Positions 7,190 through 57,378 of a stretch of 64,000 bases of DNA are shown one piece after another. The DNA comes from a virus (lineage: Duplodnaviria > Caudoviricetes). Location of the stretch: IMG/VR virus record IMGVR_UViG_3300028048_000091, positions 42,705-106,704 of that record; one strand, given 5' to 3'. The first letter of the stretch is position 1; the number at the start of each line of letters is the position of its first letter. The notes under the pieces are model-generated. The model worked only from the letters and a program-made list of their open reading frames with translations, did no database searches and had not been told where the DNA came from. Position numbers and translations under genes: made by a program.

Positions 7190-7243
7190 CAAAGATACTA
7201 TAAAAAGTTGAGAAAACAAAGAAATTTTAGTTAAAAATATTAA
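7190..7243 (-). promoter_or_regulatory. Bacteroidetes housekeeping promoter
   Basis: TTTG-N19-TATCTTTG with upstream TTAAy repeat; nearly identical to 40672-40726. Confidence 0.85.
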
Positions 7244-26441: not shown

Positions 26442-26906
26442 TTAATTTGAAATATATTCTTTATATGTCTTTGACACAATACCACCATTAGCGGTTGGAT
26501 ACTTTGCCTTGACAATTGTCATAATATCCTTCATGTCCTTCATTGTCAACATATAACTATCACCTTTTGAAGTTTTAAAGGTATCAGCAGCCTCCTTGGT
26601 ATATGCAATAATTTCTTCCTCTGATGCTTCCTTTGGCAAGTATGAATTGATTACTTCCAATTCTTTCTTTTCATTCTCAGCCAAGTCAGCACGGCCACCT
26701 TTCTCGTATTGTTCGATTGAATCCTTACGCTGTGCAGCCATCTTCATCAATACCTTAAACTGCTCATCCTCGGACAGTTCCTTTGATGCACGGTTAGGCT
26801 CTGTCTGCTTCTTTAAAAACTCTGCCTTAATTAACTTTAAGACATTAAGCAACTCTCTGTTCTTCTGATGCATTGCATCCTTAATCAATTCGTCAATCTG
26901 TATCAT
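26442..26906 (-). CDS. yqeY: GatB/YqeY domain protein
   Basis: KDAM, QRKDSIEQYEKGGRADLAENEKKELEVINSYLP. Confidence 0.9.
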   Translation of the reverse strand: MIQIDELIKDAMHQKNRELLNVLKLIKAEFLKKQTEPNRASKELSEDEQFKVLMKMAAQRKDSIEQYEKGGRADLAENEKKELEVINSYLPKEASEEEIIAYTKEAADTFKTSKGDSYMLTMKDMKDIMTIVKAKYPTANGGIVSKTYKEYISN

Positions 26907-26910
26907 TTCT

Positions 26911-28356
26911 TTACTTCATTTTATATCCTTTAATATGTTTTAATAATGTCTCTTTATCAATTTTAGGGTTATTGAATGCTAATTTCAAGGCATAATCAAG
27001 ACATTCTTTAACTTCTCTACCAGGTTTCAACCCCTTGATAGCCATTACATCATTTCCGTCAATAGGTAATCTATATCCGGACATGTCAGTGTTTTCCTCA
27101 ATCATTTCAGCAGTCCTATCATCAATTAAACGACATTGGTTATTAAAACAATACTCCGGAGCATGTGCCTTGTTATCTGCATCAATCAATGACAAAAGCA
27201 TTGCATAATACTTATTGCCACACTCATATTGGAGTTTACGAAGTGACTTATCTTTCATGTGTGAACAGTCATCACCCCAATTCTTAGTTCTCATGTGATT
27301 CTTAACCAAGAACTGTACATCCTTAATGAATTCATTTGAATATTTCAAACGTCTTAGAATGGTTTCACATAAGTCAACAGATGCCAACTCATGCTGATAG
27401 AAATGGACATTACCATTTTCATCAACAGTTTTTGTCTTAATCTTACCGATATCATGCAGTAATGCGGCCATCCGTAGAGCCAACTTGCCATTAATGGTAA
27501 AAGCACCATAATATAAACAATCATTCGTTACATTATCCAATACTTTGAGAGTATGCTCGAAAACAGTACCAAAATGATATTTGTTCTGTTTCATTCCAAA
27601 TGTTTCTTCCAACTCTGGGATAACATATTTCATTGCCCCAATATCTTTAAGCAACTTCATTGCACATACAGGGTCTTTACATAAAAGCATCTTATTCAAT
27701 TCATCCGCAATACGTTCCTTGGTAATGATAGACAATCTATCGACATTGAAATACATACCTTTAAGGGTCGTTTCCTCTATATACCAATCAGTTGACTCAC
27801 CATGAAATCTTGAGAAAAAACGCACACACCTCAAAATTCTCAAAGGGTCATCACAATAGACAATATCAGGTGTTGAAGTAACCCTAATACGATGTTCATT
27901 TATGTCTTTTAAGCCATTCCCGGTTATGTCAATTAACTCTTCTTTACTTATATTCCATAACAATGAGTTAATTGTTAAATCCCTACGCATTACATCTTCT
28001 TCGAGTGTACCGTATGCAGTTTCCGGATTCCTACTACTTTCATCATGATACTGTTCTTTCCTTGTCTGAACACATTCTATCTCAACATCGGGAAAAGATG
28101 CAAGTTTGAACATGGCAGTACCATATGTGGGATATGTAACAACAGAACCAAAAGTGAAATGGTTTTTCTCCATCCACTCAGCAAACTTTAACCCTCCGTT
28201 TTCTTTGGTAATCACGAGGTCAATGTCCTTCACATCGTTACCCATAACCATATCACGGACAGCACCTCCTACTGAATATACGTTATTCTCCCATTCACTA
28301 CCGGCAATGATAGTCTTTAAATGATTTAATATTTCCTTATATTTCTCTATTCTCAT
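26911..28356 (-). CDS. cca: CCA tRNA nucleotidyltransferase with HD domain
   Basis: VGGAVRD..KDID, EEDVMRRDLTIN, DDPLRILR, ERIADE and LLHDIGK motifs. Confidence 0.9.
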   Translation of the reverse strand: MRIEKYKEILNHLKTIIAGSEWENNVYSVGGAVRDMVMGNDVKDIDLVITKENGGLKFAEWMEKNHFTFGSVVTYPTYGTAMFKLASFPDVEIECVQTRKEQYHDESSRNPETAYGTLEEDVMRRDLTINSLLWNISKEELIDITGNGLKDINEHRIRVTSTPDIVYCDDPLRILRCVRFFSRFHGESTDWYIEETTLKGMYFNVDRLSIITKERIADELNKMLLCKDPVCAMKLLKDIGAMKYVIPELEETFGMKQNKYHFGTVFEHTLKVLDNVTNDCLYYGAFTINGKLALRMAALLHDIGKIKTKTVDENGNVHFYQHELASVDLCETILRRLKYSNEFIKDVQFLVKNHMRTKNWGDDCSHMKDKSLRKLQYECGNKYYAMLLSLIDADNKAHAPEYCFNNQCRLIDDRTAEMIEENTDMSGYRLPIDGNDVMAIKGLKPGREVKECLDYALKLAFNNPKIDKETLLKHIKGYKMK

Positions 28357-28733
28357 ATAATCTTATCTTCTAATAATTCACAAATTACTTCAAAAGCCGC
28401 ATCTAATGTAGTATTAGCTTCGACTGAATATATGGATGGCCACATCGTCGTTAATCTTGGATAATGAACTAATTTGTGTGTAACTAACAATCTATATGGC
28501 GTATTATCCTCTTTAATAGTAATTTCATATGGCATTAAATCCAATAAAGCAGAAAGACTCCACGCAGGAATCATATCTTTTAAAGAGTATGGATATGGCA
28601 CATCTTTTGGAACACAATACCATCGCTCATCATGCCATCTATACAGCATATCAGCCGTAGTAACATCAACCCCTAACTCTATTAGTTTCTTGGACTGTTC
28701 AATATCTGTACAATTTTTACTGGTATTCTTCAT
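28353..28733 (-). CDS. Phage protein, QSKKL...AWSLxALL family
   Basis: Paralog of 5365-5766. Confidence 0.7.
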   Translation of the reverse strand: MKNTSKNCTDIEQSKKLIELGVDVTTADMLYRWHDERWYCVPKDVPYPYSLKDMIPAWSLSALLDLMPYEITIKEDNTPYRLLVTHKLVHYPRLTTMWPSIYSVEANTTLDAAFEVICELLEDKII

Positions 28734-29268
28734 CTTGCCTAATTCCGTATTTATGAAAATATCTTAATGGCCTCCACTTGTGACCTTTTACGTAAAATCC
28801 CCATTTATGCCTTGGTCTTCCCTCAAACATCAATGTCCATGCGCCGCCTTTTGGTATACTTAGATAGTGTCTGTCTTCTGCCTTAGAAAACCAGATTGAC
28901 TTATTCATATGAAAGAAGTTATGCCATGAATTGAATATTCCTTCAACATAACATCTTTTTTCATTTGGTCTTACCCCATAAGAATTTTCTCCCCAATCTG
29001 GATTTTCATTCTCATTTTCTGGTTTAACGTTCCAATATCTACCCTTTAAGACAATACTTAATAAATCAGCACTATGGTCATGAAAGAACCTGTTATCATC
29101 TGATTTAATCCAATGATGTATTCTTATAGAATATCCAAAAAACAAAAATGTCCACCTTATCAAGTATGGATTATCCTCATAGCCTAACTTTTCAGCCCAT
29201 CGAATTTGAAATCTCTTGAATTTGGCGACATTACTACTACCGTACATATGCTTGCATTTTTTAGTCAA
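28717..29268 (-). CDS. Cupin-like phage protein (true start probably slightly downstream)
   Basis: IHHWIKSDDNRFFHDH...RH...AWTL...WGF. Confidence 0.6.
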   Translation of the reverse strand: MTKKCKHMYGSSNVAKFKRFQIRWAEKLGYEDNPYLIRWTFLFFGYSIRIHHWIKSDDNRFFHDHSADLLSIVLKGRYWNVKPENENENPDWGENSYGVRPNEKRCYVEGIFNSWHNFFHMNKSIWFSKAEDRHYLSIPKGGAWTLMFEGRPRHKWGFYVKGHKWRPLRYFHKYGIRQDEEYQ

Positions 29269-29465
29269 GAGGGAAGGAATCGAACCCCCACTACCTACCT
29301 CACATTCGGAACTACTTCAATAATACCTTGTCTAGAATATATTAATGTTTTGTTCTACCCTGAGAGTTCAGTGCTTTCACAGCCTCAATCATGTTTCATC
29401 GGAAATTAACCATCGTCATGGATTTCCAAATCGATTGCGTTCTACCACTTTGAACTATCCTCTCG
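29264..29465 (-). ncRNA. tRNA-like RNA with a greatly expanded anticodon/variable region
   Basis: Acceptor CGAGAGG/CCTCTTG, D arm GTTC-AAAGTGGTA-GAAC, T arm GGGGG-TTCGATT-CCTTC; promoter 10 nt upstream. Confidence 0.7.
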
Positions 29466-29475
29466 TTTTCGTTTG

Positions 29476-29530
29476 CAAATGTACTACAAATATTTTAAAT
29501 TACCAAATATTTTTAGTAAAAAATTGTTAA
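29476..29530 (-). promoter_or_regulatory. Bacteroidetes housekeeping promoter for the tRNA-like RNA
   Basis: TTTG-N20-TACATTTG. Confidence 0.8.
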
Positions 29531-29555
29531 TAATTCTTTTAAAACTTGTATTTAA

Positions 29556-29600
29556 CATTTTTTGCAAGAAGTCCCCTTCCTTCAGGTGGGGGTAGTTCAC
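29556..29600 (+). mobile_element. 45-bp single-hairpin mini IS200/IS605 element (left/right end hybrid)
   Basis: TTTAA|CATTTTTTGCAAGAAGTCCCCTTCCTTCAGGTGGGGG matches the left end of 14880-16254, followed by right-end TAGTTCAC. Confidence 0.8.
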
Positions 29601-29618
29601 GTGAAGCCTCACAGTATG

Positions 29619-30881
29619 TTAAAACTTACACAAAGTTGAACTTCGTGATTTATTAACTTCTTGCTTCACAGAGCCACTACTTTTTAGCGAATCATTTCTG
29701 ATTGGGTCATCCATAGTTGGGTTCTCCACAAGCTTAGATTCGGGTGAACTGCACCCTATTATTCTTAATCCCTCATCCAATATATTTAATGCTGCATTGT
29801 AGTCTCTACTAATTACTTCTCCGCAATGAGGGCATATCCATTCTCTGTCATTCAATGTCAATTCCTTATTGACATAACCGCAATTATGACACGTCTTTGA
29901 ACTTGGGTAAAATCTGTCAACAAATACTATCCTTCTGTTGCACCAAGAAGCCTTGTACTCAAGCATACGTCTGAACTCTCCAAAGTTCATTTCCAAAATG
30001 CTTTCTGCAAGGTTATGATTCTTAGACATACCTTTCACATTTAAGTCCTCCATACATATGACTTGGTTTTCGTCAATGAGTGAATTACTTACGCTGTGAA
30101 GATAGTATTCTTTTCTATCGTTTATTTTCTTATACACCTTAGCAAGTTTAATCCTTGCTTTATTTCTGTTATTACTTCCTTTCTGTTTTCTTGAAAGTTG
30201 CTTCTGAAGTTTCTTTATCTTCTTTGTTTCTGATTTTTTGAAATGAAGATTATCGAACACTTCTCCTTCAGATGTAATAACGAAATCCTTAACGCCAAGG
30301 TCTATTCCTACTACTGAATTTGTTTCTTTGACTTGATGCATCAAGTCTCCGTCAACAAGAATTGAAAGGTAATACTCTCCACAAGGCAAACGTTTTAATG
30401 TTACTTGTCTTATACAATTCTTATGTTTTTCAAGATACTCAGCATATTTCTTGTTACATCTGAACTTAACATTTCTTATATTAGCAAGAGAAATCTTGTA
30501 GTCTGTATAGACGTTACGCTTGGAGATTGCTCCAAGTTCAAATCTACAAGATTGTTTATTATCGTGCTTTGACTTAAACTTAGGAAATCCACTATGCTGT
30601 TCGAAGAAATTCTTATATGCTGTCAGCATATCTTTCACTGCTTGTTTCAAGACTTTAGTGTTTTGCTCTCTAAGCCATATGAAATTGTCGTCTTTCAGTA
30701 ATTCGTGATGAACAAACTGGCCTAACGTAGATAAGTTTTCAGTTATTCCATTATTCTTATATGATTCAATCTTTCTGTTAAGACATTGATTATACACAAC
30801 ACGATAGCAGCCAAGCAATTTATTGTACTGAGTTGCTTGTTCTTTGTTCGGATATAATCGTATCTTAACTGCTCTTAACAT
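29619..30881 (-). CDS. tnpB: RNA-guided endonuclease TnpB (IS607-associated type)
   Basis: GIDLG / MEDL / RDYNAA intact; zinc finger; 3' reRNA motif AAGCTTGTGGAG...GAAGCAAGAA. Confidence 0.95.
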   Translation of the reverse strand: MLRAVKIRLYPNKEQATQYNKLLGCYRVVYNQCLNRKIESYKNNGITENLSTLGQFVHHELLKDDNFIWLREQNTKVLKQAVKDMLTAYKNFFEQHSGFPKFKSKHDNKQSCRFELGAISKRNVYTDYKISLANIRNVKFRCNKKYAEYLEKHKNCIRQVTLKRLPCGEYYLSILVDGDLMHQVKETNSVVGIDLGVKDFVITSEGEVFDNLHFKKSETKKIKKLQKQLSRKQKGSNNRNKARIKLAKVYKKINDRKEYYLHSVSNSLIDENQVICMEDLNVKGMSKNHNLAESILEMNFGEFRRMLEYKASWCNRRIVFVDRFYPSSKTCHNCGYVNKELTLNDREWICPHCGEVISRDYNAALNILDEGLRIIGCSSPESKLVENPTMDDPIRNDSLKSSGSVKQEVNKSRSSTLCKF

Positions 30882-31318
30882 TACTTATTGTATATTATCT
30901 TCATTATTTTTCCGCTATTACAATTTTTTTGGCCAACGACTTTCCAATGGCAGAATTCTGGAGACGTATCATGGTAATATCCATCATTTTCATCAAAATA
31001 TTCCCAATATGTTCCTTGAACATCTGTTAAAGTTCTATATTTTTCGTTTTTAATACCTTCCAAAACTATGTCACCTTTCTGAACATTTTTCCAATCAATA
31101 GTGTCTGATACTATTTTTCTTCCATCATAGTAGCCGACTTCTACAATAATAGCTGAATCGCCACCTATTATCCTATTGATGTCAGACTCACGATAGCGTC
31201 TGTGACCGCCAGACGTTAAAATTGGTTTAAGTTTATTTTCCTTGTCCCAAATTCTTAATGTCTTAGGCGTAACATCAAGTATTTCTGCTGTCTTTGATAT
31301 GTTGTATAGTTTATCCAT
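30881..31318 (-). CDS. MerR-type HTH (IS607 TnpA N-terminus) fused to a non-resolvase domain
   Basis: TAEILDVTPKTLRIWD..GGHRRY present; YARVS serine recombinase motif absent. Confidence 0.75.
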   Translation of the reverse strand: MDKLYNISKTAEILDVTPKTLRIWDKENKLKPILTSGGHRRYRESDINRIIGGDSAIIVEVGYYDGRKIVSDTIDWKNVQKGDIVLEGIKNEKYRTLTDVQGTYWEYFDENDGYYHDTSPEFCHWKVVGQKNCNSGKIMKIIYNK

Positions 31319-40671: not shown

Positions 40672-40726
40672 CAAAGATACTATAAAAAGTTGATAAAACA
40701 AAGAAATTTTAGTTAAAAAATATTAA
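40672..40726 (-). promoter_or_regulatory. Bacteroidetes housekeeping promoter (near copy of 7190-7243)
   Basis: TTTG-N19-TATCTTTG. Confidence 0.85.
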
Positions 40727-42618: not shown

Positions 42619-42708
42619 TGAAAGAATTTTTTAGATTAGAAATGGAGTGACCAACTTTTTAGTCAACCACTCCATCGAACTTATATTATATTTCGAAAGT
42701 AAATGTAA

Positions 42709-46701: not shown

Positions 46702-46772
46702 AGTTTTTATATTTTTCTCTTAATTTTTGTGCAAAGATACTATAAAATTTTGAAAGCACCAAATATTTTCTG

Positions 46773-57026: not shown

Positions 57027-57378
57027 TTTTTTTTCTATTTTTCAGTTGCAAAGGTACTACAAAAAATTGATAAAACAAAATAAAGAGAGTTAATTTTTGC
57101 TAAAAAACTCTCCTTTAACTTTTATTCAGCTGGCGGCAACCTACTAATCAGCACCTCTGAAAGATATGCCTTTACAATCAACATACTGCTTATAGTGTAT
57201 TCACCATAGATTTGCTTAACCACGTCATATACGATTGATTTCTCTGGCACATGATATGGCCTTGTACTATTTGTTACAAATTCCTTAATTTGTTCGTTGG
57301 ATAACTTGTTAAGTACAGCAAGTATATCCTTAATCTTTACATTCTTTGAAATTTTCATGTTAATTAATTTTTAATTTG

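Follow-up and report, generated by a model that had tools for sequence, protein, structure and literature searches.

Does a tRNA-shaped gene whose middle is filled with extra sequence encode a tRNA that is restored by splicing, or an RNA that keeps its additions? The question is raised by a 201-nt RNA gene on the minus strand (29265–29465, from C1 at 29465 to discriminator A73 at 29265) of a 64,000-nt stretch of phage DNA, hereafter the window, which comprises positions 42,705 to 106,704 of the IMG/VR virus record IMGVR_UViG_3300028048_000091 (Duplodnaviria; Caudoviricetes). The extent of the gene was set with ARAGORN in intron mode, homologs, and covariation; RNA position p corresponds to window coordinate 29466 - p, and the RNA is assigned to the minus strand because many of its helix pairs are G-U. 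The initial annotation described a tRNA-like RNA with intact acceptor, D, and T arms and a single large structured insert. The canonical arms are indeed seen, and the middle, which holds the D and T arms 149 nt apart, covaries; however, the structured interruption is not one insert but two, placed separately in the anticodon loop and the variable loop. We regard it as an even call whether the RNA is, as the best explanation has it, a CCA-tailed, non-decoding derivative of tRNA-Val that keeps its extra arms.

A tRNA body with two inserts

Homologs were gathered by a search with the cupin protein encoded downstream, which returned 39 viral and 80 metagenomic loci. At most cupin loci a tRNA-shaped gene of 130–230 nt lies upstream of the cupin gene, immediately so in the close relatives of the window. 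A related RNA occurs on more than 60 phage and metagenome contigs, many of them 300–680 kb long, down to ~50% identity of the neighboring protein, and the T arm of the family is present in one copy per phage genome. From 22 members of the window's own subfamily (alignment A1) a consensus fold was derived, then refined and tested. In this fold 92.7% of cells are paired, compared with 84.1 ± 0.6% when partners are shuffled (none of 500 shuffles reaches the observed value) and 43%–52% when partners are slid by 1–3 columns, and 21 of the 41 pairs are altered on both sides. Folded as a single sequence, the RNA is no more stable than its shuffles (z = 0.48), and the minimum free energy fold missed the cloverleaf. 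Because folding energy is at shuffle level, support for the structure comes from comparison with relatives.

The tRNA body is conserved from end to end. Its 7-bp acceptor stem (29459–29465 with 29266–29272; CGAGAGG/CCTCTTG, RNA 1–7 with 194–200) is 97.4% paired in the 22-member alignment, with three pairs altered on both sides; C1-G72 is invariant, pair 2-71 is either G-U, as in the window (G2-U71), or A-U, and pair 3-70 is A-U. The D arm (29439–29455; GTTC-AAAGTGGTA-GAAC, stem RNA 11–14 with 24–27) combines a 9-nt loop containing GG (G18-G19) with a stem that is 100% paired in the same alignment, including a C-G to U-A change in four sequences. The T arm (29273–29289; GGGGG-UUCGAUU-CCUUC) contains tandem G-U pairs, 50-64 and 51-63, and both are G-U in 21 of 22 sequences. 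The tertiary 15-48 pair, read from the sequences, is retained as A15-U48 in the window's subfamily and as G15-C48 in distant members. As the initial annotation had noted, CCA is not encoded in the window, where A73 is followed by CTA. Among 36 family members A73 occurs in 35, and C74 is encoded in nearly all; this near-universal C74, together with the CCA that directly follows A73 in six distant members, identifies the 3' end as a true tRNA-type end. The RNA thus belongs with tRNA-Val by its acceptor stem, A73, and CCA-type end, by its D arm, T loop, and 15-48 pair, and by the A35-C36 identity nucleotides described below.

The anticodon stem (29432–29437 with 29386–29391; CAATCG/TGATTG, tRNA positions 27–32, RNA 29–34 with 75–80) has 6 bp, the G32-U38 wobble included, and four of these are altered on both sides (CAATC/GATTG, TAGTC/GACTA, CAGTC/GACTG, CTATT/AATAG). 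Grafted on the 5' side of the anticodon loop is insert 1, a 31-nt hairpin (29399–29429; RNA 37–67) with an 8-bp helix (RNA 37–44 with 60–67) in which all eight pairs are altered on both sides. Its tip, CCAUGACGAUGG (29421–29410; RNA 45–56), is followed by a 3-nt bulge and is invariant or almost so in 21 of 22 sequences; one family member, L158, has a second copy of it, CCGUGACGACGG. Judged by eye, neither the invariant tip nor the junction gave support to a K-turn or T-loop reading. In the covariation-based fold, insert 1 is stacked upon the anticodon stem, so that a rod takes the place of the anticodon loop and AACA is left as a 3' bulge. The TTTGGAA that had been proposed as a Pro(TGG) anticodon loop is one strand of the covarying insert 1 helix, and relatives have GAGGGAG or GAGGCAG in its place.

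Insert 2, of ~93 nt (29290–29382; RNA 84–176), occupies the variable loop between A44-G45-G46 and U48 in alignment A1. At its start stands the hairpin H1 (29373–29383; RNA 83–93; GCU-GUGAA-AGC), which has a GNRA-like loop. H1 was misaligned by MAFFT, and its stem variants, which covary, were read directly from the sequences (GCU/AGC, GGCUU/AAGUC, GGCUU/AAGCC, GUC/GAC, GUU/AAC, GGC/GCC). Shorter relatives have a true GNRA tetraloop here (GAAA, GCAA, GGCA), and a natural variant, L147, lacks exactly H1, the only presence/absence allele seen. The hairpin H3 (29318–29347) has an interrupted 8-bp stem supported by covariation (RNA 122–127 with 140–145, extended by 119–120 with 147–148) and a 12-nt loop with UCUAGA (29336–29331); this TCTAGA is nearly invariant in type A and is the best-conserved part of insert 2. 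The remainder, delimited in the alignment (29290–29318), comprises a conserved purine-rich stretch, GAAGUAGUU, and a variable tail into the T stem, and no conserved helix was found 3' of GAAGUAGUU among aligned relatives. Among the helices drawn in the initial annotation, CAATCG/TGATTG, (TT)GGAAAT/ATTTCC(GA), and CCAT/ATGG are upheld by covariation in the 22 homologs and GCT/AGC, which is H1, by inspection. CTGA/TCAG is not conserved and falls away, as does TAGAA/TTCTA, which is missing from relatives and clashes with the conserved hairpin whose loop holds TTCTAGA.

Inserts also occur elsewhere on the body in other members. Pairs 51 and 52 of the T stem are separated in L006 (2828–2976), L040 (2741–2968), L172 (136–272), L014, and L024, by a UUU bulge in L014 and L024 and by a whole hairpin with a GUUGCAAAC loop in L006 and L172; in L020 and L023 the insert sits in the D loop. 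The same modules are therefore found at different outward-facing sites of the tRNA body. A further insert-bearing tRNA-shaped gene, of 126 nt, lies on the same contig outside the window (G000:C1:28173–28298, minus strand) behind a promoter of the same kind (TATCTTTG). It has good acceptor, D, and T arms and no recognizable anticodon stem, and within it UAUGACGGUA is similar to the invariant tip AUGACGAU of the window RNA.

Standard tools recognize little of this. In the whole window, default ARAGORN reports zero genes and Rfam at gathering threshold gives no match, and the standard tRNA model RF00005 has no match at E ≤ 10 in 28800–30000; a short relative in L010 reaches 30 bits in the Rfam scan against a threshold of 29. 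At E ≤ 10 the same 28800–30000 interval returns chance-level matches only, namely, DdR16, SmY, snoR101, a HEARO fragment within the neighboring TnpB element, and a bit of tmRNA T loop. The check suggested in the initial annotation was thus informative in part: default runs find nothing, and ARAGORN in intron mode finds the gene with inconsistent anticodons. Its calls of Phe(GAA) and Gln(TTG) have poor anticodon stems and are unstable across relatives (Pro, Met, Arg, Ala, Asp, Val, and others), and from this inconsistency it follows that no simple intron within a standard loop can account for the middle.

Known RNA classes do not account for the gene either, and the initial annotation was right to set aside tmRNA and group I introns, because ARAGORN and Rfam are negative and the inserts too small. 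A tmRNA is recognized by tRNA-Ala-like ends (G3-U70), the lack of a D stem, pseudoknots, and a tag reading frame. The window RNA has a full D arm and A-U at 3-70, ARAGORN finds none in tmRNA mode, and the Rfam tmRNA match covers only the 11-nt T loop (7.1 bits). A YrlA/Y RNA assignment was rejected, with no RF02553 match in the element and with termini at the acceptor stem. Searches by blastn against 50,697 phage records gave no match, and an exact 25-mer search of viral contigs found none. A loose gapped pattern returned 103 loci, of which only three were true relatives, all already known. Literature searches found no published description of this Val-type family.

Valine identity nucleotides and self-complementary loops

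If the loop is occupied by a hairpin, what has become of the anticodon? The 3'-side bulge between insert 1 and the anticodon stem, UGAAACA, contains a Val-type triplet, AAC (29395–29393), followed by A37 (29392). RNA positions A72, C73, and A74 are invariant in alignment A1, and N-A-C-A-U is conserved directly before the 3' strand of the anticodon stem (AAC-A-U in the window, 29395–29391). Triplet statistics cover 36 family members, and the script anchored the site on A-C, so that A-C is found in all by construction. Position 34 is A in 21 members, T in nine, C in three, and G in three. Position 33 is A in 13, T in 11, G in 10, and C in two, a share of U close to the base-composition expectation. 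A37 is present in 26 of the 36 members and U38 in 28. In Escherichia coli, valyl-tRNA synthetase identifies its tRNA mainly by A35, C36, and A73; a free N34 combined with conserved A35, C36, and A73 is, on sequence grounds, the pattern that would be expected for synthetase recognition without codon reading.

A second signal comes from the loops of the inserts. The homologous distal hairpin loop carries UCUAGA, CUAUAG, UCCGGA, UAGCUA, UUGCAA, or UGCGCA in different lineages; all six hexamers are palindromic and mostly flanked by purines (for example, AG-UAGCUA-A). A hairpin with a palindromic loop is present in all 21 close-subfamily representatives, compared with 13.6 ± 2.0 (maximum 19) in dinucleotide shuffles; with the T-loop-like TTCGAA set aside, only ~4 of 21 further tRNAs with inserts in these phages have one. 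In shorter relatives such loops come as a pair: The anticodon rod has UAGCUA and the variable module has UCUAGA. Palindromy that is kept while the sequence changes is the signature of a kissing-loop dimerization site, such as the HIV-1 dimerization initiation site (DIS), and the changing palindromes are suggestive of working arms rather than discardable spacer.

In the explanation that we favor, a single-copy, promoter-driven 201-nt RNA would have descended from a tRNA-Val gene and would remain tRNA-shaped, with permanent extra arms. Its transcript, predicted to start ~5 nt upstream, would be trimmed as tRNAs are by RNase P and RNase Z, would receive CCA from a host enzyme or from the phage enzyme encoded downstream, and would keep both inserts in the mature form. 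Valyl-tRNA synthetase may still recognize it through A35, C36, and A73. The UCUAGA loop may pair with a second copy of the RNA, or with another RNA, much as the HIV-1 dimerization hairpin does, and the assembled RNA could serve as a sponge, a valine carrier, or a scaffold. The fuller version, in which a single-copy, CCA-tailed, perhaps valylated non-decoding RNA forms dimers through its self-complementary loops, or chains and rings in the two-loop forms, we offer tentatively, as a possibility suggested by the sequences.

Are the inserts removed?

Several points weigh against permanent retention of the arms and against assembly. The RNA data are contigs, in which a spliced product that is rare or short would go unseen, from libraries in which DNA may be present; standard RNA-seq also captures mature tRNAs poorly. 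The nucleotides A35-C36-A37 and A73, the intact tertiary core, and the position in a tRNA island are equally expected of a real tRNA-Val. The same phages clearly hold tRNAs with genuine introns, so removal machinery probably exists, and an RNA ligase (PF09414) is encoded. Palindromy is weak proof, as the ordinary T loop TTCGAA is also palindromic, the sequences are AT-rich, and the shuffle control already reaches 13.6 of 21; because the sequences are related, the palindrome counts are not independent. Dimerization, CCA addition, and valylation, finally, are all steps that we infer.

The rival that draws most on these points keeps alive the earlier suggestion of a tRNA with a novel intron, though we do not favor it and think it somewhat unlikely. 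It holds that the gene encodes a genuine tRNA-Val with two introns, in the anticodon loop and the variable loop, which are cut out and rejoined by a protein route for which the inserts are recognition handles. The candidate enzymes would be an unknown endonuclease, or cuts of RNase III or RNase P/Z type, together with the phage RNA ligase. The A35-C36-A37 triplet, A73, intact core, C74 or CCA, and tRNA-island context all fit, as do the natural variant that lacks exactly one insert hairpin and the RNA ligase, which is encoded in this contig and in three of three complete relatives. Yet removal does not restore a tRNA. When single deletions were searched by brute force, none gave a 5-bp stem closing a 7-nt loop with U33, and every join of the two sides of the loop leaves A at position 33. 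Nor do relatives point to a restorable loop, since the loops are abnormal, at 8 nt (L023, L024) or 12 nt (L016), also in those lacking large inserts, and position 34 drifts even among close relatives. To our knowledge, bacterial tRNA-Val never uses A34. The conserved palindromic loops, moreover, would be unneeded in a mere handle.

Other interrupted tRNAs of the same phages behave differently, and they count on both sides. Many tRNAs of related phages yield canonical loops upon insert removal, as the two-intron account would have it; those for Arg-UCU, Ser-GCU, and Val-GAC regain perfect CU-NNN-AA loops. Selection for decoding is thus visible in these neighboring genes and missing in the RNA gene studied here. 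A plain tRNA-Val(UAC) lies nearby in L005, L010, L012, and L039, and with the other interrupted tRNAs restorable and this canonical tRNA at hand, the Val look-alike is both different and redundant for decoding. The interrupted tRNA-Arg, -Ser, and -Val genes (L010:1419–1597, L010:1706–1882, L012:2235–2410, L008:3822–4002, L012:6265–6422) are split near the anticodon by introns of ~80–105 nt, which have in common the 5' motif ACGG...CCGAAAC, possibly a pseudoknot, as well as a hairpin resembling a T arm, NNNN-GTTCGAA-NNNN; in the intron at L010:1419 the fold is a complete cloverleaf-like four-way junction.

The closest published observation that we found, which also speaks for introns, is that tRNA genes of Lak megaphages contain conserved "enigmatic" introns (Devoto et al. 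2019, PMC6784885). There too the phages are huge, infect Bacteroidota, and carry conserved, Rfam-unclassified inserts missed by tRNA finders in bacterial mode. However, the Lak tRNAs are described as having single inserts whose removal gives a named tRNA, whereas the window RNA has two inserts, no canonical loop upon removal, and conserved loop motifs within the inserts.

Archaeal tRNAs may have several bulge-helix-bulge introns, also at noncanonical sites. They resemble the window RNA in having more than one insert per gene, including at sites other than 37/38. Unlike them, the window RNA has no bulge-helix-bulge at either junction: On inspection, the insert 1 junction is a 6-bp stem, 2 nt opposite 7 nt, and an 8-bp helix, not two 3-nt bulges 4 bp apart. 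The promoter and CCA-adding enzyme of the locus are also of bacterial type. Searches of this contig and three complete relatives found neither the ligase RtcB (PF01139) nor a class I synthetase of the valyl-tRNA synthetase type.

What do the RNA data say of a joint? Unspliced sequence is present in three rumen RNA libraries. In a size-fractionated library, 29298–29507 forms its own 211-nt contig at a depth of 19.4, compared with 2.9 for the next contig, with a single difference (29401 G>A) that converts a G-C pair of insert 1 to G-U. A contig from another library, X3, spans 28900–29455 and joins an Illumina adapter at 29455; in X3 there is no cover of 29456–29575, and contig X21 ends at 29507, which gives hints only on the ends of the RNA. 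Many cDNA inserts thus appear to stop ~10 nt short of the RNA 5' end, where the D stem begins, and the end at 29455 may be a reverse-transcriptase stop at a modified base or stable structure. No RNA-library contig skips either insert, although contigs drop rare forms, so this is no evidence against splicing; more generally, assembled contigs cannot reveal RNA ends, levels, or rare or short spliced forms, and the libraries may contain DNA.

A second rival sees the element as a cis-acting 5' leader of the cupin-cca-yqeY operon with no role in trans, in which cuts by RNase P and RNase Z would set the mRNA 5' end or stabilize the transcript. The RNA ends 17 nt ahead of the cupin start with no second promoter motif between, the order of RNA and then cupin is retained in most relatives, and contig X3 runs through both genes, although such a contig is in itself no proof of a single RNA-and-cupin transcript. 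Yet the spacing to the cupin gene ranges from ~16 to ~450 nt across relatives and the order is altered in some, and a processing signal requires a plain tRNA fold only, not two conserved inserts, a Val triplet, A73, and an encoded CCA. We consider a leader improbable.

Very unlikely, in our view, is a new class of very small self-splicing or self-cleaving RNA. The inserts are structured, conserved, and match no known family, and bacterial tRNA genes classically harbor group I introns. Those in cyanobacterial tRNA-Leu(UAA) and Azoarcus tRNA-Ile measure ~200 nt or more, contain a P3–P9 core, terminate in G, and follow a 5' exon whose last nucleotide is U. The likeness is that a structured RNA interrupts the anticodon loop of a bacterial-type tRNA. 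In contrast, the inserts here are 31 and ~93 nt at two sites, with no P3–P9 core or other pseudoknotted core, and their excision does not give a normal tRNA. A group I intron was further rejected because RF00028 has no match (E ≤ 10 in the window region; E ≤ 1 in ten relatives) and because the nucleotides bordering insert 1, 5' G-A and 3' U/C-G-A-A, show neither a conserved exon U nor a conserved terminal G. The small-ribozyme families in Rfam likewise gave no match at E ≤ 10 in 28800–30000.

A decaying tRNA pseudogene struck by small mobile insertions would explain why standard tRNA finders miss the gene and would suit the IS607-like element 90 nt upstream, but it is scarcely credible given more than 60 contigs, compensatory changes in every helix, a promoter of its own, presence in RNA libraries, and an insertion sequence that lies outside gene and promoter. 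The initial annotation had named decaying halves with an unconserved middle, or a missing transcript, as grounds for abandoning its proposal; what we find is a conserved, covarying middle and the stretch itself in three RNA libraries, where DNA is possible.

Related RNAs and the surrounding locus

Among RNAs that imitate tRNA without decoding, bacterial Y RNAs such as YrlA (RF02553) mimic the tRNA elbow and acceptor, and some are phage-encoded. The acceptor end of YrlA is closed, however, and its termini lie in the Ro-binding stem, whereas the window RNA has true tRNA ends. The tRNA-like structure at the genome 3' end of turnip yellow mosaic virus is valylatable and has a pseudoknotted acceptor. 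It too is a viral, non-decoding RNA with Val identity nucleotides (A-C and discriminator A) in a noncanonical frame; in contrast to it, the window RNA is free-standing and small, has a normal acceptor stem, and is only putatively valylated. Self-assembly is known for phage-linked RNAs, including ROOL and GOLLD (PMC12286853), the manA motif (bioRxiv 10.64898/2026.07.01.735769), and phi29 pRNA. With these and with the HIV-1 DIS the window RNA shares a purine-flanked 6-nt self-complementary loop core that varies among lineages yet stays palindromic; those are small or phage-linked RNAs that oligomerize without protein, and the window RNA would join them if it self-pairs. It differs in being built on a tRNA body, as none of those is, and its self-pairing is predicted from sequence.

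Non-decoding tRNA-shaped RNAs are rare, and tmRNA, Y RNAs, and viral tRNA-like ends each opened a field of their own. Here, the huge phages of an entire clade each maintain a single gene of this kind, which stands first in an island of translation genes and has a conserved architecture that RNA libraries do not recognize. New in this family are the two-insert layout with an insert in the variable loop, the statistics of positions 33 and 34, the contrast with the true-intron tRNAs that these phages also have, palindromes that change at a single homologous loop, and a contig of unspliced sequence from an RNA library. Should the arms be kept, the RNA would represent a new class of structured RNA that uses a tRNA body as a stable, correctly processed carrier, and self-association would be possible, in line with the unaided oligomerization recently found for small phage-linked RNAs. 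If the dimers, chains, or rings are real, they would be a natural tRNA-scaffolded RNA assembly, of which we know no description from any virus or cell. If the inserts are instead removed, bacteria or phages must be able to splice a tRNA at two sites, one of them in the variable loop, and we know of no such route in either.

The source record, from a rumen phage, is 106.7 kb long, has 33.8% G+C, and is judged 27% complete, and is therefore a fragment of a huge phage. The RNA stretch is also present in gut samples of cow and goat. The promoter that the initial annotation had assigned to the RNA is confirmed as one of Bacteroidota type (29476–29507, minus strand), with a -33 TTTG (29507–29504), 20 nt, and a -7 TACATTTG (29483–29476), and the start of transcription is inferred at ~29470, ~5 nt ahead of the RNA 5' end. 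Sites of the form TTTG-N17–23-TAnnTTTG number 18 in the window, compared with 5.4 ± 2.1 expected, and 17 of the 18 are on the minus, coding strand. Because TTTG/TAnnTTTG is the consensus of Bacteroides promoters, the enriched motif points to a Bacteroidota host. The 17 minus-strand blocks (for example, 7190–7220, 14182–14212, 40672–40702, 46732–46763, and 57049–57079) consist of TTTG, ~20 nt, and TAnnTTTG, often with a T-run and TCA ahead, and look like one class of phage promoter.

The cysteine dioxygenase-like cupin gene (28717–29247, minus; phrog_4786, E = 4e-23) keeps its place beside the tRNA-shaped gene down to ~50% protein identity. It is followed on the same strand by a 126-aa open reading frame (ORF), a class II CCA-adding enzyme with RNA-binding and HD domains (26911–28356, minus; Pfam PF01743, PF12627, PF01966, and PF13735), and a YqeY-domain protein (26442–26906, minus; PF09424, E = 5.8e-31); cca and yqeY do, as first annotated, belong to the same run. 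The phage CCA-adding enzyme could supply the CCA that the RNA gene lacks. The YqeY domain is similar to the GatB tail.

Upstream of the RNA gene, at ~90 nt, lies an IS607-like unit (29557–31318, minus) with a TnpB ORF (29619–30881, 420 aa) and a MerR-HTH ORF (30881–31318, 145 aa), in whose product no resolvase domain was detected. Comparison with L144 and L151 places the right end of the element at 29557/29556, so that it takes in neither the RNA gene nor the promoter of that gene, and it is absent from the nearest relatives. A G+C-rich hairpin (29543–29597) follows the TnpB stop, where the scaffold of a guide RNA would lie. In a related phage, a tmRNA (L012:3563–3970; Rfam RF00023, 100.4 bits) is encoded directly downstream of the cupin gene.

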